The notes below the pieces were generated by a model. The model was not told the origin of the DNA, did no database searches, and worked only from the letters and a program-made list of their open reading frames with translations. Positions 1 to 11,271 of a stretch of 11,271 nucleotides of DNA are shown piece by piece (the first letter of the stretch is position 1; each line of letters begins with the position of its first letter). The stretch is from a virus (taxonomy: Duplodnaviria; Heunggongvirae; Uroviricota; Caudoviricetes): positions 1-11,271 of IMG/VR virus record IMGVR_UViG_2563366822_000010. One strand, given 5' to 3'. A program made the translations under genes and the position numbers.

Positions 1-552
1 ATGCATGAAAATATTTGGTTTACATATAAAGCCCGTATTCAAGCGCACCATAGACTAGAATGGCTTGAAAAACACTCTCAATTTATCCTCGTTTGGTATG
101 CTATATTGAGTGCGGTACTTTCAATTATAACGTTACGATTTCCAAAATTTCTAGGAGATAATACAGATATCGTTGCGGCAATACTTTCAGTGGCTCTACT
201 GGGTATTTCTCTGATCGTATCTAACCTAGATTATCGTGGTCGAGCAATAGCCATGAGAAGGAATTATATTGCACTACAGAGACTCTATTTTGATATTAAT
301 AACGGCCAACAGTTAACTCTTGAACAGAAAGAAAAATATTTTAATTTGCTCAATGAGGTTGAGAATCATCGTGACATAGATGATAAAGTTTCAAGGGTAA
401 CTCAAGTTGGACTTACGACTAGACTCCCCACACAAAAAGAAAAAATAATTGTTAAATTATGGATATTACGTCGAATGTTTATTACTGTCGGCCTTTATAT
501 CCTCCCATTAATATGTCTTTGGATTGACTATGAATGCAAGCAGAGTTTTTAA
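1..552 (+). CDS. Small multi-pass membrane protein (2-3 predicted TM helices); putative effector partner of the downstream reverse transcriptase
   Basis: 183-aa open frame in very AT-rich (stop-codon-rich) DNA, so unlikely by chance. N-terminal amphipathic segment (MHENIWFTYKARIQAHHRLEWLEKHS), then two hydrophobic helices (FILVWYAILSAVLSIITL at about nt 79-135; IVAAILSVALLGISLIVS at about nt 166-219), a charged soluble segment, and a third hydrophobic/amphipathic stretch near the C-terminus (IVKLWILRRMFITVGLYILPLICLWI). Stop TAA at 550-552 overlaps the RT start. The ORF begins at window position 1, so the true start could lie upstream. Confidence 0.6.
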   Translation: MHENIWFTYKARIQAHHRLEWLEKHSQFILVWYAILSAVLSIITLRFPKFLGDNTDIVAAILSVALLGISLIVSNLDYRGRAIAMRRNYIALQRLYFDINNGQQLTLEQKEKYFNLLNEVENHRDIDDKVSRVTQVGLTTRLPTQKEKIIVKLWILRRMFITVGLYILPLICLWIDYECKQSF

Positions 553-1900
553 AAAGTCATTCTCGAAAAAAAACCTTCTAAAAGTATACAATGAAAAAAT
601 CAAAGAATCAGGAGCGATTGGCATAGATCGGATTCGTCCATCAAAACTTGATTTAACAATAAAGAATGAGATCACTTTTATTTTTGAAAAGGTTAATTGT
701 GGAAATTATAAATTTACAGCATATAAAGAAAAATTAATATCTAAAGGGGCTAACTCTATCCCCAGACAGATTTCCATACCAACTGCCAGGGACAGAATTA
801 CCCTTAGGGCTCTCTGTGAATGCCTTACAGAAATATATCCTAACTCCAGATTAAAACTACCACATACAGTAATTGACTTATTGAAAAATGCATTAAACAG
901 CGATCTATATGCTGAATATGCAAAAATAGATCTCAAAAGTTTCTATCCTTCAATTGAACATAAATTGATATTTAATGCAATAAAAAATAAGATTAGAAAA
1001 AAAGAAATTAGGCAGTTAATAACATCATCATTAATCGTGCCTACTGTAAGTGGAAGTACAGGAAGCAAAGGTGTCCCTAATAATACCAGAGGAGTACCTC
1101 AGGGGTTAGCAATATCAAACATTTTAGCTGAAATATCACTATCTGATTTCGACAATGAAATCAATAAAATGCATGACATATGGTACATGCGATACGTTGA
1201 TGACATTCTTATTTTAACGCAAAAAGATCAAGCAACAAAAATTGCATCTCATATCATTGATAAGCTTCAATCATTAAATTTAAACCCACATCCATTAAAT
1301 GAAGAGAACTCAAAATCCAAAGTAGGCAGCTTGGATGAAAGTTTCAACTTTTTGGGCTACCACATAAAAAATCGAGAATTATTGATAAAACATGAGAGCA
1401 TTCTTAGATTTGAGTCATCCTTAGCAAAAATTTTTACTGCATATAGACACGCTCTACTACAAGCTAAAAATAAGCGCGATAAAGAACGAGCTGTTGCATA
1501 TTGTCAGTGGAAACTAAATCTTAGAATTACGGGATGTGTGTTTGAAGGTAAACGATTGGGATGGGTATCGTACTTCTCACAAATAACGTCAACAGCTCAA
1601 CTTCGAGCTGTTAATCATACGATCAATAATCTTATCCGCCGATTCGGCCTTTCATCAGAAATAAAACCAAAGTCTTTGATTAAAACTTTCTATGAACTCC
1701 GCAGGGGTAGAGCGGAGACTTTTAAATACATACCTAACTTTGACAATCTACATATATCTCAGAAACGAGAAATTGTTTCTATGTGGATAGGGAAAGAGAA
1801 TGAAAAAAAACTTAGCAATAGTGAAATAGAGAGAAAATTTAAATTTAAAATTGCGAAATCAGTAAAAGAGCTTGAAGAGGACATTTCAGGGATATCATAG
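530..1900 (+). CDS. Reverse transcriptase (bacterial standalone RT, retron/Abi/UG-like)
   Basis: Polymerase motifs read directly from the translation: ..SIPRQISIPTARDRITLRAL.. (motifs 1-2), ..YAKIDLKSFYPSIEH.. (motif A, Asp codon 926-928), ..TRGVPQGLAISNILAEISL.. (motif B), ..YMRYVDDILIL.. (motif C, YVDD at 1193-1204), ..NFLGYHI.. (motif E). About 170 further residues follow motif E. ATG at 530 is the likely start; the ORF track begins at an in-frame TTG at 524. Overlaps the upstream ORF by 23 nt in a different frame. Confidence 0.85.
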   Translation: MNASRVFKKSFSKKNLLKVYNEKIKESGAIGIDRIRPSKLDLTIKNEITFIFEKVNCGNYKFTAYKEKLISKGANSIPRQISIPTARDRITLRALCECLTEIYPNSRLKLPHTVIDLLKNALNSDLYAEYAKIDLKSFYPSIEHKLIFNAIKNKIRKKEIRQLITSSLIVPTVSGSTGSKGVPNNTRGVPQGLAISNILAEISLSDFDNEINKMHDIWYMRYVDDILILTQKDQATKIASHIIDKLQSLNLNPHPLNEENSKSKVGSLDESFNFLGYHIKNRELLIKHESILRFESSLAKIFTAYRHALLQAKNKRDKERAVAYCQWKLNLRITGCVFEGKRLGWVSYFSQITSTAQLRAVNHTINNLIRRFGLSSEIKPKSLIKTFYELRRGRAETFKYIPNFDNLHISQKREIVSMWIGKENEKKLSNSEIERKFKFKIAKSVKELEEDISGIS

Positions 1901-1962
1901 ATATGTAATCCATTAAATCCTTTATATATAAAGCAATAAACACACTATTTAAATTCACAAAT

Positions 1963-1998
1963 CAGCCGCAGTATCCTGCCATGACAAGTTGCTGCGGC
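1963..1998 (-). terminator. Candidate stem-loop terminator between the convergent tfa and RT genes
   Basis: Inverted repeat GCCGCAG (1965-1971) / CTGCGGC (1992-1998), extendable by G-U and A-U pairs, with a loop of about 16-20 nt. On the minus strand it is followed by a moderately T-rich tract (TGATTTGTGAATTTAAAT). No clean U-run, so weak. Confidence 0.3.
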
Positions 1999-2012
1999 AT
2001 ATCACAAAACGA

Positions 2013-2597
2013 TTACTCCATAACAGGGACCGCAGGCCACTCAATATCAGGTGCAGTTGATGTATCAACACGGTTCAGCAACACCCGATACTTTTTCCAG
2101 GCTTCCAGCAATGAGGTTTCTTCCTCCGTTGCAATTTCCAGATCTGCAGCATCCTGAAGCGGCGCAATATGCTCACTGGCTACCTGCATCAGGTTGTTTT
2201 TTGTTTCTTCCGCCTCCCGGATCCGGAACAGTTTTTCTGCTTCCGTATCCTTCACCCAAGCTGTGCCGTTCCACTTCTGAAACTCCCCTTCCGGCGATAA
2301 CCAGGTAACATTTTCCGGTAACGGACCGAGTTCAGAAATAAATAACTCGTCCCCTGACGCTACGTCATAAACCGTTTTACCCCGATGGTCTTCAAAGAGA
2401 TGCCACGATGACTCATCACTGTTGAAAACAGCCACAAAGCCAGCAGGAATATCTGGTGGTGCAATATCGGTACTGTTTGCTGGCAGACCTGTATGAGGCG
2501 GAATATATGCGTCACCTTCACCAATAAATTCATTAGTTCCGGCCAGCAGATTATAAATTTTTATGGTCCGTGCTTGTTCACTCATTCTGAATGCCAT
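2013..2597 (-). CDS. tfa: Tail fibre assembly protein Tfa
   Basis: 194-aa translation ([54 protein letters not shown]...[11 protein letters not shown]) is near-identical to phage lambda Tfa as I recall it. The ATG overlaps the stf stop (TAATG junction at 2595-2599), as in lambda. Confidence 0.93.
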
Positions 2598-5389
2598 TAT
2601 GCAAGCCTCACAATATAGTTAAATGCGATGTTTTTGACGGTGTTTTCCGCGTTACCAGCAGCGTTAACGGTGATGGTGTGTCCATGTGAACCAATCGCAA
2701 CGGAGTGCGCATGAGCACCAATTGGAACAGAGTGCGCATGGTTACCTGTAGTGCTTGTGGCACCAGACCAGGTTCTGGAAGCGTTAAAGTTTACAGGAAC
2801 ACCATAAGTAAATTGAGAGCCCGTAAATCCATGGGCTGGCGCAGAGCCACCCAGTGTAAATGCTCCACTTGCTGTATAGAAATTACCGCTATCACTTCTG
2901 AAGTAACCGAGAGTACCGGTAATTTCCATAGTGCCTCGGCTGTGGTTATGGTCACCAGTGGCATTTGAAGACTTAGTACCATAATCAAACGACGACGTGG
3001 TTTTCGTCCCCAAATCCGTACTGGATGCACTGGCGCTGTGGGTGTGCGATTTAATGCCGTCCTGTTCCTGAGATAATACGGCTCGACCACTGGCAGGTTT
3101 GCCCTTAATCGTCCAGCCACGCATATCAGGGATCACGCCTGACGGATAAGCAGCTGCAAGTTTCGGGTAAGCAGATTTGTCAAAAGTCTGCCCCTGCATC
3201 AGGGCATAACCAGACGGAACGGTATCTGATGGCCACGGGATTGGTGCGCCGACTGGGTAGCTTTCTGGTGGAAGATTTTTCGAGGTATAAACTTCTGCCC
3301 AGTCTTCCTCAAAACCATAACCGTCTCTTGAAGAACGGTAGAACAGACCACGATTTCTGTAATGCGCCTTCATCTGCAGGGTCCGGCAACTTCCGACTCC
3401 GGTATAGAAGTTAACCAGAATATAGCTGTCGCCAGAGCGGGTGACATTGTAAGCGCCTGATTCGGCATTCCAGGGAACGGCTCCATCCGAATCCGCATAA
3501 GCCCCCGTCGAACGTCGGGCAAATGCACCAATATTTTCCGGCGTGAGGTTAATATCCGCCGAGCCATCAAACTTAACACCGTTAATTTTTGGGTCTGCCG
3601 CAAGTTTCGTCGCGGTATCGGCGTTCCCCTTCAGTGCCCCGGTGATCCCATCAGTAACAGACAACGGACCTGAAATAGTCCCTCCAGTTGTTGGCAGCGC
3701 TCCAATATCTGATGGTGTAGGTTTCTGATGTGAGCTATACATCGTATAAACAACACCATCGGTAACGCTGGAAGGCTTACTCGCTGAATATGTTAGCGAG
3801 GTATAAATAGAAACTGACGCATTTGTAGTACAATCCCAATGGATATTTACACTCGTCGCATAATTGCCAATCTCAACGTAAATATCATATATATCGCCGG
3901 ATGTGTTGATCCAGGCGAAATTCGTTAATCCGACGGCTGTACGCTTCCACAAAGCTCCGGTAATCCCTTTGGGGTTTCCATTGCCTGCTCGTAGAACCAG
4001 TTCAGATATACCTGCCTGTTGAGGTGCCCCCACGTTAAATCCAGCGCCACCAATCAATGCGATGTAAACGATGGAACTCGCTTGTGGCATGGTAACCGTT
4101 GCCAGTTTGAACCACCCTGCCCCGCCAGAGAAAGAGATCGTTACTGAATTTAAAGTGCCAATATCTTTCGGTGTTAATGTTATATCCGCAGTCAGTGCTT
4201 TCCCGTTAACTTTTCGGTTAGATGGTACCCTGCCATTCGCATTGTCATTCGCTGCTTTAACTGCCTTCGGTGTCGCGGCAAGCGTTTCAGATGTGCTGTT
4301 GGTTGCACTGCTGAGCTGTACTATCCCCTTTTTCGTCGTACTTGCATCCTCAAGCGCCACGGCGGATGCAATATCCTCTGCCCGTTTTGCCGCTGTCTCG
4401 GCGCGCGTTGCCGCGGATTCCGCCGTACTTTTGCTCTGAGCTGCCGCCGTCGCACTGCCAGCTGCCTCTGTCGCCTTCGTGGATGCCGTCGTGGCGCTGC
4501 CCTTTGCTGCTGACGCCTGTCTGGTCGCCTCATCTTTTGAAGCAGACGCAGATGATGCCGATGACGCCGCCGAACTGGCGGACGATGCGGCAGCCGTTTT
4601 TGAGGATTCTGCGCTGGTTTCCGAGGCTTTCGCGTTCGTTTCGGATGTCTTCGCTGCCTCTTTTGAGGCCGCCGCATCCCGTGCTGAAGTGGCTGCTTCT
4701 GACGCTTTCGTGGTCGCGGTGGATGCAGAAGTGGCTGCTGATTGTTGTGACGCTGCCGCATTCGTTTCTGACGTTTTCGCCGCACCGGCACTGGTAGCCA
4801 CCGCGCTTTTTGAGGACTCTGCAGCGGCAGCACTTTTTGATGCTTCAGTAGCCTTTGTTGATGCCGTTCCTGCGCTGGAAGACGCTGACTGAGCCGACGT
4901 CGCGGCCTGCCCGGCTGATGTGCTGGCTGCACGTGCTGAGCCTGCAGCATCAGTCGCATGGGTTGCCGCCTCACTGGCAGATATGCTGGCATCGCTGGCT
5001 GACTTCTTCGCGGCTGCCGTGTTCTGTGCCACCGCGGACGCGTTACGCGCCACCTCTTCCACCATCAGTTCAAAACGGCGCAGTGCCTCAGGACGGGCAT
5101 CATCCTCCGTCATGGCACCGAGAAAATCATTCAGCGTACCGGGTCGGGAATCTTCATACACGGTGATGGTCCCGGCATGTGAAGGCGGAAAACCTTCAAC
5201 CAGCAGGGTGACGCTGTACTGACCATGCTCAACATCCATGCTGTAACGTCCGGCTTCATCCGGATTTTCAGAGGCCACCGTGTTCACCACCACCGTGCTG
5301 CTGGTTCGTCTGGCCTTCAGCACAATGGTGCAGTTCTGTACTGGTTTTCCTGTGCCATCTTTAAGCACGCCAGAAATTTTTACTGTCAT
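2597..5389 (-). CDS. stf: Side tail fibre protein Stf
   Basis: 930-aa ORF. N-terminus ([28 protein letters not shown]...[14 protein letters not shown]...[15 protein letters not shown]) and C-terminus ([71 protein letters not shown]...[31 protein letters not shown]) match lambda Stf as I recall it. The centre is an Ala/Ser/Thr-rich low-complexity region. A GGTGGA Shine-Dalgarno lies 5 nt upstream of the ATG at 5387-5389. Confidence 0.93.
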
Positions 5390-5401
5390 ACTTTTCCACC
5401 A

Positions 5402-5435
5402 ATAAAAAAGCCCGCAGCAGTGACGCCACGGGCTT
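5402..5435 (-). terminator. Rho-independent terminator downstream of lom
   Basis: Stem AAGCCCG (5408-5414) / CGGGCTT (5429-5435) with a 14-nt loop. On the minus strand the hairpin is followed directly by TTTTTTATT (plus 5402-5409 is ATAAAAAA). Confidence 0.5.
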
Positions 5436-5539
5436 CAGGACAGTGTAACTTTACGTTTCCTCAAACGCAGTTCACCCCATAAGGTGGATGAACCTGCGTA
5501 TCATAACAATATTTACAGAAGATAAATCGGCGTCTGTTG

Positions 5540-6139
5540 TCAGAAACGGTATCCGATACCAACAATAAATGCATCCGTTCGCCAGTCGCCACTACCGGAA
5601 CCTTCATAAGCAAGGTCAATGGTCACGGATTCGGTCGGGTTAAACTGCACGCCAGCCCCCCACGCCAGAGACGTGTTGCTGTGGCGACCGTCATCACTTC
5701 CGGTCAGCACATCGTGCGTTTTCCCCTTGTTGTCAGTTACGCGGAGATAATCCCCGGAGAAAGTCGACACACGGCTGTAAGCCACACCCACCATCGCATA
5801 CGCGCTGAACCATTCATTCACGCGTACAGACGGCCCCGCCATCACGCTGAACCAGCGGTTACGCACGGAATCTTCATGCCAGCGGGTATCGCTGTAGTGC
5901 GTTTTTTTCTCATCTTCAGCATTGGCATAACTGAAGGACGTAATCAGCCCCAGCGCGTCCGTAAACTCATAACGGTATTTCACGTTAATCCCGTTCAGAT
6001 TATCGCTGCCGGGAGCGTTCGTACGGGCATGAAGATACCCCGCGCTCAGTGTGGACTGATGTTCAGACGCCCATGCAGGCGCACCAGATACGGACAGACA
6101 GATGGCTGCGGACAAAATGGCTGCACAAACTTTACGCAT
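5540..6139 (-). CDS. lom: Outer-membrane protein Lom (Ail/Lom/PagC/OmpX family beta-barrel)
   Basis: 199-aa translation (MRKVCAAILSAAICLSVSGAPAWASEHQSTLSAGYLHARTNAPGSDNLNGINVKYRYEFTD...AFIVGIGYRF) closely matches lambda Lom as I recall it. It has an N-terminal signal peptide ending AWA-SE and a C-terminal aromatic residue typical of outer-membrane barrels. Confidence 0.93.
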   Translation of the reverse strand: MRKVCAAILSAAICLSVSGAPAWASEHQSTLSAGYLHARTNAPGSDNLNGINVKYRYEFTDALGLITSFSYANAEDEKKTHYSDTRWHEDSVRNRWFSVMAGPSVRVNEWFSAYAMVGVAYSRVSTFSGDYLRVTDNKGKTHDVLTGSDDGRHSNTSLAWGAGVQFNPTESVTIDLAYEGSGSGDWRTDAFIVGIGYRF

Positions 6140-6161
6140 AATTACCTCTCGCTTTTCTGCA

Positions 6162-6187
6162 ATAAAAAAGGCGCCATTTCTGGCGCC
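6162..6187 (-). terminator. Rho-independent terminator between J and lom
   Basis: Stem GGCGCCA (6170-6176) / TGGCGCC (6181-6187) with a 4-nt loop TTTC. On the minus strand it is followed by TTTTTTATT (plus 6162-6169 is ATAAAAAA). Confidence 0.5.
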
Positions 6188-6206
6188 CGTATATGGGTTA
6201 TAAAAT

Positions 6207-9687
<3,481 letters not shown>

Positions 9688-9696
9688 TCACACTCC

Positions 9697-9726
9697 ATAA
9701 ACAACAAAGCCGCCCAAAAGGCGGCT
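9697..9726 (-). terminator. Rho-independent terminator downstream of the lipoprotein gene, immediately upstream of the J ribosome-binding site
   Basis: Stem AGCCGCC (9708-9714) / GGCGGCT (9720-9726) with a 5-nt loop. On the minus strand it is followed by TTTGTTGTTTAT, then GGAGTGTGAGGA and the J ATG. Confidence 0.45.
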
Positions 9727-9750
9727 CATGAGTTACGACAGGATTAACTA

Positions 9751-10089
9751 TTATTTACATGCATTAACACTATCAGCAAAAATTTTTGGCGTTAATGCTG
9801 GTACACGTTCATAAAGAGTAAAACTACTGCCATTTCCTGCTTTTTTGATATCAAGCACAACATCATATCCCCCCATAGCCTGTGGAACTAAAAGGCTTAC
9901 CCCATTCTCAATAGGAAGGGATGTTATAGGTGTTCCATTACCAGCCCATTGTCTGGATATGCAGCCTGACAATTCATCAATATTTTTTAATGAATTACCT
10001 TCCATTACAGGTTTTCCGGATTTTACGTAATCCAAAGATTTACATCCTGTTAAGGCAATAATCGTGCAGAATAAAATCGTTTTGTTCAT
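9751..10089 (-). CDS. Small lipoprotein (signal peptide with lipobox LTGC); inserted gene between I and J
   Basis: From the ATG at 10087-10089: MNKTILFCTIIALTGCKSLDYVKSGKPV..., i.e. basic N-terminus, hydrophobic core and L-T-G-C lipobox. About 112 aa. It sits in an AT-rich insert (about 9690-10162) that is absent between I and J in lambda. No strong Shine-Dalgarno is visible; the ORF track starts at an upstream TTG (10101), so the start is uncertain. Confidence 0.6.
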   Translation of the reverse strand: MNKTILFCTIIALTGCKSLDYVKSGKPVMEGNSLKNIDELSGCISRQWAGNGTPITSLPIENGVSLLVPQAMGGYDVVLDIKKAGNGSSFTLYERVPALTPKIFADSVNACK

Positions 10090-10162
10090 ATAGCTAACCA
10101 ATAGAATAATTATCAGTGTTCGATATAAATATTAAATTAGTTAGAACATGAGTAAAATAATA

Positions 10163-10804
10163 TTACCGCCCAATTACCACAACCTGACCACCATCCCCTT
10201 CATCTGCCGTGCTGATCTCCTGAGATGCCACACGTGACCCCACGCGCATTTCACCGTACAGAACAGGCAGGACATTGCCCTGGGCAACCATGTTATCCAG
10301 TGAGGAGAAATAGGTGTTCTGTTTGCCGTTATCCGTTGTCTGTGTACGGGGAGTTCTGGCTTTCGGTGCCAGCATCTGCGCCACACCACCAAGCGTCATC
10401 GCCGCACCCATTGAAAAGAGAATGTCACTGAAAGCGATACTGATCCCCGGCATCCAGATTGCCGTAGCAATCAACGCCGCACCCAGCACCGCCTGAAACA
10501 CACCGCCACTTTTTGCTCCCGCAAGACGCGGCACGATGTGGATCACGGCACCATTTGCCAGCGGCTCATTAAGACGGGATGATAATTCGGTTTCTCCTGC
10601 ATCCCGCCCGGCAATCCGTACCTGATACCAGCCGTCGCTCAGTTTCTGACGAAACGCCGGGAGCTGTGTGGCCAGTGCGCGGATGGCTTCAGCCCCCGTT
10701 TTCACACGAAGGTCGATGCGGCGGCCAAATCGTTGCAAATCCCCGTAAAGGCAGATGCGTGCCATTCCCGGTGACGCCAGAGGGAGTGTGTGCGTCGCTG
10801 CCAT
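10163..10804 (-). CDS. I: Tail assembly protein I
   Basis: 213-aa translation (MAATHTLPLASPGMARICLYGDLQRFGRRIDLRVKTGAEAIRALATQLPAFRQKLSDGWYQVRIAGRD...QTTDNGKQNTYFSSLDNMVAQGNVLPVLYGEMRVGSRVASQEISTADEGDGGQVVVIGR) matches lambda I as I recall it. The 5' end overlaps the K 3' end (10702-10804) in another frame, as in lambda. Confidence 0.93.
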   Translation of the reverse strand: MAATHTLPLASPGMARICLYGDLQRFGRRIDLRVKTGAEAIRALATQLPAFRQKLSDGWYQVRIAGRDAGETELSSRLNEPLANGAVIHIVPRLAGAKSGGVFQAVLGAALIATAIWMPGISIAFSDILFSMGAAMTLGGVAQMLAPKARTPRTQTTDNGKQNTYFSSLDNMVAQGNVLPVLYGEMRVGSRVASQEISTADEGDGGQVVVIGR

Positions 10805-11271
10805 TTGTCGGTATACCTCTCTCGTTTACTCAGTTGTTCAGGAATATGGTGCAGCAGCTCACCGTCGCCGCAGTAAATGGCGGCGTGATTCGGCACCGAT
10901 GAACCAAAACAGCACAGCAGCACATCGCCCGGCTGCGCCTCTGTCAGTGCGACACGGTAAAAACCAGTAGCCTCCATATTGTCAAGATAGAGATTCTGAC
11001 CGTGACGCCACCAGTCATCCCCGCGATGAAAATCCGGCATCTCAATCCCCGCCAGATGATAAGCATCCCGGAACAGCGTGTAACAGTCCGTCACCCCGTA
11101 CTCAAAGCGCCGCCCGGTGAGATGCGGCACACAGCGGAACTTATGAATCGTCCCCCGGCAGACCAGCCACCACGGCAAATCGCTCTGCACCTGCAGCCGC
11201 CGGTCAGCCTCACTCAGCCAGGGCAGACCACCGGGGTGGCTGTGGACCAGCGCCACAATCTCACCCTGCAT
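10702..11271 (-). CDS. K: Tail assembly protein K (JAMM/MPN-like plus NlpC/P60-like motifs); probably 5'-partial at the window edge
   Basis: Translation contains a JAMM-type metal-binding signature HSHPGGLPWLSEAD and a C-terminal papain-like arrangement (Cys in GVTDCYTLF, His in NHAAIYCGDG), the domain pair described for lambda K. Synteny (upstream of I, overlapping it) supports the call. The ORF is open to the last base of the window, and the JAMM motif sits only about 10 residues from the first visible Met, so the real start is probably beyond 11271. Confidence 0.88.
   Translation of the reverse strand: MQGEIVALVHSHPGGLPWLSEADRRLQVQSDLPWWLVCRGTIHKFRCVPHLTGRRFEYGVTDCYTLFRDAYHLAGIEMPDFHRGDDWWRHGQNLYLDNMEATGFYRVALTEAQPGDVLLCCFGSSVPNHAAIYCGDGELLHHIPEQLSKRERYTDKWQRRTHSLWRHREWHASAFTGICNDLAAASTFV

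Follow-up and report, generated by a model that had tools for sequence, protein, structure and literature searches.

The first 1,900 nucleotides (nt) of IMG/VR virus record IMGVR_UViG_2563366822_000010, analysed here as a stretch of 11,271 nt that we refer to as the window, almost certainly carry the two protein-coding genes of a DRT10 defence system (UG17, subtype A, with the SLATT gene preceding the reverse transcriptase gene), borne by a prophage as anti-phage cargo. The initial annotation, made from the sequence alone, had recognised a reverse transcriptase (RT) paired with a small membrane effector as anti-phage cargo and had considered the arrangement uncharacterised and possibly unclassified. 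The first of these claims is supported, the family being DRT10, for which defence has been tested in an E. coli allele. The second did not stand: the RT is of the UG17 type from end to end, its partner is a SLATT_5 protein, and the pair is an already characterised DRT10 system, correctly identified, and not a new one. The sole new detail is an allele with a two-base variant of the RNA template, together with the repeat predicted from it.

Profile hidden Markov model (HMM) classification, which the initial annotation had proposed for an RT that it could not assign by eye, places the protein in the named family UG17. The PADLOC model RT_UG17 matched over its full length (protein residues 1-456, model positions 1-429 of 429) with E=8.3e-159 and 527 bits, whereas the runner-up among the PADLOC RT models, Drt3a, reached E=2.3e-37 and 127 bits. 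The UG17 match is therefore about 120 orders of magnitude ahead of any other RT model; lower scores were obtained with Drt2 (85.1 bits) and Drt9 (63.9 bits). The partner was matched by the PADLOC model for RT-associated SLATT proteins (RTasSLATT, E=2.8e-57) and by SLATT_5 in both Pfam (99.3 bits, cut-off 29.5) and NCBIfam (133.6 bits, cut-off 60), bearing out the earlier suggestion of a SLATT or two-transmembrane (2TM)-type protein. The combination of a UG17 RT with a SLATT partner identifies the pair as a DRT10 defence system.

The initial annotation had itself named a group II intron maturase or a diversity-generating retroelement (DGR) RT with matching RNA nearby as an outcome that would overturn its reading. 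Weak matches to such models do exist and could be taken to indicate a retron, group II intron or DGR RT whose RNA partner had been missed, an explanation whose probability we put close to nil. The group II intron RT/maturase model TIGR04416 gave 139.9 bits, GIIM gave 15.1 bits (E=0.024) and retron_St85_RT gave 63 bits, but these scores lie under the respective cut-offs of 300, 23 and 235 bits and far under the 527 bits of UG17. Rfam found no retron or intron RNA in the window or its flank, no direct repeat of at least 25 nt of the template/variable repeat (TR/VR) type was found within 4 kb around the RT, and no msr/msd, group II intron or DGR RNA was detected inside the window. The RNA encoded upstream of the cassette, described below, has DRT10 architecture, and the only operon neighbour of the RT is the SLATT gene, whereas an Avd-type accessory gene is expected for a DGR. 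DRT3 (UG3 and UG8, comprising Drt3a, Drt3b and a non-coding RNA) was also considered and rejected: a single RT is present here, and NCBIfam Drt3a scored 112 bits against a cut-off of 200.

The features of the DRT10 cassette, the left edge of the window and the spacer behind the RT gene are as follows (window positions).

1..552, + strand: SLATT_5 membrane effector gene of DRT10 (profile HMMs and hydropathy; 183 amino acids).
530..1900, + strand: DRT10 reverse transcriptase of the UG17 clade (RT_UG17 profile; 456 amino acids from the ATG at 530).
530..552, + strand: overlap between the SLATT gene and the RT gene, 23 nt (from the coordinates of the open reading frames, ORFs).
1193..1204, + strand: catalytic YVDD, RT residues 222-225 (translation; invariant in 12 of 12 distant homologs).
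1895..1897, + strand: codon for Ser456 at the C-terminus, which is predicted to act as protein primer and to become linked covalently to the 5' end of the cDNA (protein end ...ISGIS).
1..1, + strand: left edge of the window; the 137-nt non-coding RNA and its promoter lie outside, upstream (read from E. coli IAI39 locus L001).
1965..1998, no strand assigned: GC-rich hairpin (GCCGCAGUA...UGCUGCGGC) in the spacer between the RT gene and tfa (RNA fold).

Recomputation confirmed the two overlapping ORFs, the position of the YVDD motif, the AT-richness of the cassette and its convergence with the tail genes. The SLATT ORF ends within the 5' end of the RT ORF in a different frame, and the 23-nt overlap suggests translational coupling. 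Direct translation in the RT frame gives YVDD from TAC GTT GAT GAC. The GC content is 0.335 across the cassette (1-1900) and 0.536 across the phage tail side (2013-11271), where tfa (2013-2597), stf, lom and J run convergently on the minus strand. Hydropathy of the 183-residue protein peaks at residues ~25-48, 54-78 and 153-177, corresponding to two N-terminal hydrophobic helices and one C-terminal helix. An in-frame TTG at 524, upstream of the ATG at 530, gives a 458-residue form of the RT. The Eco3DRT10 entry OKX54664 carries two extra N-terminal residues by misannotation (Tang et al., PMC12632851), and the choice between TTG 524 and ATG 530 is exactly this case. Position 1 of the window coincides with the first base of the SLATT ATG.

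A strong association of UG17 RTs with SLATT proteins was seen in 2022, when a defensive role was predicted. DRT10, made up of a UG17 RT, SLATT and a non-coding RNA (ncRNA), is described in three preprints from 2025-2026 (PMC12632851; 10.64898/2026.04.29.721553; 10.64898/2026.06.29.735271). Tang et al. named DRT10 and showed that three E. coli systems defend against diverse phages (PMC12632851); defence has been demonstrated in Eco1-3DRT10, in another six homologs and in the UG17 system of Escherichia sp. E3659 (PMC12632851; 10.64898/2026.04.29.721553). It is lost upon YVAA mutation of the catalytic motif (in Eco3DRT10 this mutation abolishes it), SLATT deletion or deletion of the ncRNA, a 137-nt RNA encoded upstream of SLATT that is required for defence (PMC12632851). 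The RT product is kilobase-long single-stranded tandem-repeat DNA, primed from a C-terminal serine (S456 in Eco3DRT10, where S456A abolishes both complementary DNA (cDNA) synthesis and defence), and repeat addition needs an A-B-A' sequence in a template loop downstream of stem-loop 5 (SL5) (PMC12632851). Sanchez-Nieto et al. independently confirmed the tripartite requirement, defined subtypes A-C and reported control by the exonuclease SbcB and a phage trigger resembling single-stranded DNA-binding protein (SSB) (10.64898/2026.04.29.721553). By cryo-electron microscopy, Ramirez et al. observed two RT monomers on one pseudo-symmetric ncRNA, with the template window fixed geometrically between the anchors at SL5 and stem-loop 1 (SL1) (10.64898/2026.06.29.735271).

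The window's proteins are close to those of the allele found in E. coli IHE3034 (L002): the RT is identical at 434 of 456 residues (95%, 22 substitutions) and SLATT at 165 of 183 (90%, 18 substitutions). As far as Table S1 of Tang et al. shows the sequence of OKX54664 (Eco3DRT10), the IHE3034-type RT matches it, and the IHE3034-type ncRNA carries the published Eco3 template. In the part of Table S1 covered here, the C-terminal sequence of the window's RT occurs at least 19 times, and one entry, marked 'ncRNA associated TRUE', has a SLATT protein identical to that of the window. Twelve more distant homologs with RT identities of 57-82% were used for comparing residues and synteny. All 12, like the window's RT, retain YVDD at 222-225, R371 (the SL5 anchor), K385 and Y388 (the SL1 anchor) and S456. 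Equally, a SLATT ORF lies directly upstream and overlaps the RT start in each of the 12, which answers the concern raised in the initial annotation that the partner might not be conserved beside homologous RTs. The overlap measures 23 nt in the E. coli and Xenorhabdus loci and 4 nt in 11 loci from Photorhabdus, Pseudomonas and Stutzerimonas.

The ncRNA was read from the corresponding locus of E. coli IAI39 (L001), whose sequence agrees at 100% with window positions 1-2093. It is 137 nt long and occupies L001 5846-5982, i.e. 155 to 19 nt upstream of window position 1; its numbering starts at L001 5846. The 241 nt upstream of the SLATT ATG in this locus hold the region's best sigma-70-like promoter (TTGACT-18-AATAAT preceded by TG, 10 of 12 matches; L001 5810-5839, 191 to 162 nt upstream), and the ncRNA starts 7 nt downstream of it. 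In the predicted fold (-54.2 kcal/mol, z=-5.67), four hairpins and two loops of single-stranded RNA lie within a basal stem, and the structure in the IAI39 locus includes a 20-nt loop.

A covariance model built from four enterobacterial copies scored 174 bits in L001. In each of the 11 distant loci (Photorhabdus, Pseudomonas and Stutzerimonas, with RTs 57-62% identical) it gave a full-length match of 84-97 bits that lies on the coding strand, upstream of SLATT; the ncRNA is found in this position in 15 of 15 loci (84-174 bits). In the alignment of 15 sequences, 97.8% of cells fall in standard pairs compared with 46-59% when the 3' partners are slid, a large gap in an alignment that was fitted to the covariance model and so favours the structure. 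Changes on both sides (compensatory) were observed for 16 of 36 base pairs, five stems are supported by covariation, and none of 500 shuffles reached the observed covariation. Neither our covariance model nor Rfam found the ncRNA in the window itself because the RNA lies upstream of position 1. The earlier remark that no associated RNA was visible is true of the window but misleads, since a templating ncRNA sits just beyond its edge. This upstream segment is kept in 188 of 188 complete E. coli genomes with a full-length cassette, and the ncRNA is very probably present in the window's source genome as well.

In IAI39, an in-frame ATG at L001 5848 would lengthen the SLATT ORF by 51 codons through the ncRNA, an extension that is open because that frame is free of stop codons (L001 5848-6000). 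Automated annotation could in this way count the ncRNA as coding sequence and predict a SLATT protein that is too long; the RefSeq SLATT start in IAI39, 6001, is correct.

Numbering from L001 5846 reproduces all landmarks reported for the Eco3 ncRNA.

G44: in Loop A.
G86 and G104: flank SL5.
U105-U106: 5' linker.
C107-C115: template.
116-119: A'.
A120-U123: 3' linker.

The window-type template loop reads CAACGGUUC followed by CAAU, and its A-B-A' arrangement (C107-AAC GGUUC CAA-U119) consists of A=CAA(C), B=GGUUC and A'=CAA(U). The IHE3034-type loop reads CAAUGAUUC followed by CAAU and yields the published repeat GAATCATTG. The two 137-nt RNAs differ at six positions (131 of 137 identical), and two of the six, U110C and A112G, are the template differences from Eco3. 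All 15 loops show the (U)CAA...(U)CAA A-B-A' pattern with a period of 9-10. The U110C/A112G form is shared with Xenorhabdus, whose loop has the same CAACGGUUC-CAA form, and is close to the Pseudomonas loops, which read UCAACGGUAC-UCAA; given these relatives, the window-type template looks like the older state. The exact repeat of the window allele, which we infer from its template, would be GAACCGTTG, and the predicted product is a Ser456-primed tandem-repeat cDNA, (GAACCGTTG)n, that differs at two bases from the (GAATCATTG)n of Eco3. In Eco3, substitution of U110 is tolerated and merely alters the repeat, and three bases of A-A' identity suffice (PMC12632851). The window-type ncRNA and template strings were not found in the portion of the Tang et al. 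supplements searched.

Our analysis covers the family and the gene architecture, the ncRNA as it occurs and folds in identical loci, its template pattern, and the RT residues for catalysis, priming and anchoring; for defence, protein priming, constitutive repeat synthesis and the 2:1 stoichiometry we draw on the literature on the 95%-identical allele. By analogy with that allele, the 137-nt ncRNA would be transcribed from its own promoter just upstream of SLATT and bound by the RT, with two RT monomers per RNA as in Eco3DRT10. As primer for DNA synthesis the RT would use the hydroxyl group of Ser456 at its own C-terminus; it would copy the 9-nt template C107-C115 (CAACGGUUC) and halt at the boundary set by SL5. 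The nascent DNA would then re-pair with the downstream CAA (A') and the cycle would repeat in a telomerase-like manner, giving long single strands of (GAACCGTTG)n DNA in covalent linkage with the RT. SLATT would be the effector, responding to the amount or state of this repeat DNA, which host exonuclease I (SbcB) would control and SSB-like proteins of the phage would disturb; SLATT would then arrest or kill the infected cell.

How the DNA acts on SLATT is modelled in two ways. In the proposal of Tang et al., a pore-forming SLATT oligomer is kept in check by the repeat DNA until the level of that DNA drops on infection (PMC12632851), whereas in the model of Sanchez-Nieto et al. SLATT becomes active when cDNA builds up, which SbcB limits and an SSB-like protein of the phage promotes (10.64898/2026.04.29.721553). 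For the window's system we infer control of SLATT by the repeat DNA, and membrane damage with abortive infection is the likely result under either model.

Several points weigh against this account. On infection, cDNA decreases in one study (PMC12632851) and increases in the other (10.64898/2026.04.29.721553), so that no DRT10 has an established connection between cDNA and SLATT. The ncRNA lies outside the window, its presence in the window's own genome being deduced from the 188 of 188 genomes mentioned above. A 100% match to the window in its entirety is absent from the complete E. coli genomes; the best reaches 90% coverage at 95.5% identity. The window allele itself is not reported as tested in published work. 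Lastly, U110C and A112G leave 3 nt of A-A' identity where Eco3 has 4, and they open a second register of 8 nt, GUUC-AACG-GUUC, in the window-type loop.

This last point raises the prospect of a functional DRT10 with a product other than the predicted one, either an 8-nt (CGTTGAAC)n repeat from the GUUC...GUUC register or imprecise repeats, which we regard as unlikely. The longest A-A' match in the loop is indeed GUUC/GUUC (period 8, 4 nt) as against CAA/CAA (period 9, 3 nt), and Eco1DRT10 sets a precedent, its repeats being imprecise through a cryptic re-annealing site (Tang et al., PMC12632851). However, the 8-nt register needs copying of G104-U106, whereas the stop at C107 is set by the SL5/G104 anchor and the U105-U106 linker. 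Since the SL5 stem, G86, G104 and the linker are identical in the window allele, G104-U106 should not be copied, and the published geometric boundary rule makes the 8-nt register unlikely. Both the substitution at U110 and a 3-nt A-A' homology are tolerated in Eco3 (PMC12632851), and Xenorhabdus retains the CAACGGUUC-CAA loop.

The 9-nt repeat stays our prediction. A more novel reading, in which the window allele is a natural template variant of Eco3DRT10 (U110C, A112G) making GAACCGTTG or conceivably an 8-nt or mixed product, strikes us as rather unlikely. Were the sequence of the repeat important to how SLATT is engaged, or to evasion by the nucleases or SSBs of phages, the two E. coli alleles, which are also 10% of SLATT residues apart, would be a natural pair for finding out whether SLATT reads that sequence.

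Among 5,426 complete genomes of E. coli, 197 carry the DRT10 cassette, in every case on the chromosome, and at least 75 carry it together with its upstream flank at 99% identity or more. A block of dinI-like gene, ncRNA, SLATT, RT and tail-fibre genes adjoins prfC in IAI39, IHE3034 and MS20654, and the same dinI-like-to-tail-fibre block adjoins yecD and aspS in an ST131 strain. The different sites indicate that the cassette is cargo which travels along with the prophage, placed between the dinI-like gene and tfa, in agreement with the cargo position at the tail-fibre end that was proposed initially. A megablast search of the INPHARED phage genomes returned no copy of the cassette.

The state of the surrounding prophage raises the question of whether the cassette is an inactive DRT10 remnant in a decaying element, perhaps one that lacks the ncRNA or promoter. 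The J gene of the window is split by an 82-nt duplication unseen in any of the 5,426 complete genomes, the adjacent dinI-like gene is frameshifted and tfa truncated in IAI39, and the ncRNA is not visible in the window. Nevertheless, we consider a remnant very unlikely: both ORFs are intact, the catalytic, priming and anchoring residues are all present, and the ncRNA region is kept in all 188 full-length copies. Copies that are 100% identical to the cassette also occur in at least 17 genomes from unrelated sources, and copies with 99% identity or more in 78, which argues for maintenance. Defence cargo commonly outlives its prophage, and this too counts against a remnant.

Between the RT gene and tfa lies a convergent spacer of 112 nt, and the fold of 1895-2020 is stable (-21.5 kcal/mol, z=-3.5). 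The hairpin within it is a probable terminator of the RT and/or tfa transcripts; a simple terminator scan did not call it because the + strand is without a clean T-run. Beyond the cassette, the window is taken up by minus-strand genes of a lambdoid tail module: tfa (2013-2597), stf with its 930-residue product, lom, J, an ORF for a small lipoprotein, and I and K, which encode tail assembly proteins.

Within J (minus strand, ORFs 7450-9684 and 6207-7481) we observed a perfect 63-nt direct repeat with a spacing of 82 nt (window 7386-7530). J is split into ORFs of 744 and 424 residues because 82 is not a multiple of 3, and both ORFs encode the same 21-residue stretch at the junction. The best matches listed from complete E. 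coli genomes collapse to 177-179 bp, and none of them has the duplication. It is either a recent inactivating event in a defective prophage or an assembly artefact.

Other observations concern the tail genes themselves. An AT-rich ORF (~36% GC) of 116 residues lies between tail genes I and J (9751-10101, minus strand) and encodes a lipoprotein-like signal (MNKTILFCTIIALTGCKS); it matches phrog_914 (function unknown, E=8e-33) and no Pfam family. It looks like a second moron of the tail module, possibly encoding a surface or exclusion lipoprotein. A full-length match to Rfam IS009 (RF02111; 225 bits, gathering threshold 117) lies wholly inside tfa (2056-2254, minus strand), and IAI39 carries a truncated copy; the IS009 family is probably a tfa-derived prophage remnant and not an independent small RNA here. 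The N-terminal third of stf (minus strand, window 4200-5000) is a long low-complexity stretch rich in Ala, Ser and Thr with TSETNA repeats, its GC content being near 0.60 and its AT skew reaching -0.44, a composition that produces long spurious ORFs in other frames. In ST131 strain 4433 (L017 7847-8749), a gene for a macro domain-containing protein stands between stf and tfa, beside the DRT10 cassette, and may be a further cargo or defence-related gene of the tail-fibre region.

The discovery value of the cassette is small, as the family, its three components, its biochemistry and its structure are published and the exact protein pair is in a published dataset. A reading of the raw sequence sufficed to recognise a defence RT with a membrane effector. 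A window cut at the start of an ORF can hide an essential non-coding part, here a templating RNA 19-155 nt upstream. What the locus offers is a widespread natural allele, two template bases off Eco3, as a ready comparison for how repeat DNA controls SLATT.

Among known systems, Eco3DRT10 of E. coli 703491 resembles the window's cassette in gene order, in the 23-nt SLATT/RT overlap, in its 456-residue RT with YVDD, R371, K385, Y388 and S456, and in its setting in a prophage between a dinI-like gene and the tail-fibre genes. Its ncRNA is like the window-type RNA in SL1-SL5, Loop A and G86/G104, and both linkers are identical; it differs in the repeat (GAATCATTG as against the predicted GAACCGTTG) and in an A-A' identity of 4 nt as against 3 nt. 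The UG17-A system of Escherichia sp. E3659 (10.64898/2026.04.29.721553) shares the subtype, the ncRNA-SLATT-RT order, an independently transcribed ncRNA and toxicity controlled by SbcB. It is, however, a more distant homolog (with Eco1/Tob1-like sequences) with a 143-nt ncRNA of six stem-loops and a 7-nt repeat, and its cDNA rises on infection whereas that of Eco3 falls.

Further afield, DRT9 (UG28) and DRT2 (UG2), which are other Class 2 UG RTs, are like DRT10 in that iterative cDNA templated by an ncRNA is the immune output. DRT9 is also protein-primed with a similar ncRNA fold, but it copies a U-tract into poly-dA, uses tyrosine for priming, forms a hexamer and works without an obligatory SLATT; DRT2 differs in making a concatemeric gene (neo). 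Retrons with 2TM effectors equally combine an RT, an ncRNA and a small membrane effector in an abortive-infection logic and travel as prophage cargo, whereas their RTs belong to another clade, and their msr/msd RNA gives a 2'-5' branched msDNA primed from an RNA guanosine, with no tandem repeats. Telomerase (TERT plus TER) shares with DRT10 a short internal RNA template with an A-B-A' realignment sequence, a 5' template boundary defined by a stem, and repeat-addition processivity. It differs in that it extends chromosome 3' ends and not a protein serine, that TERT is much larger, and that it serves genome maintenance and not immunity.

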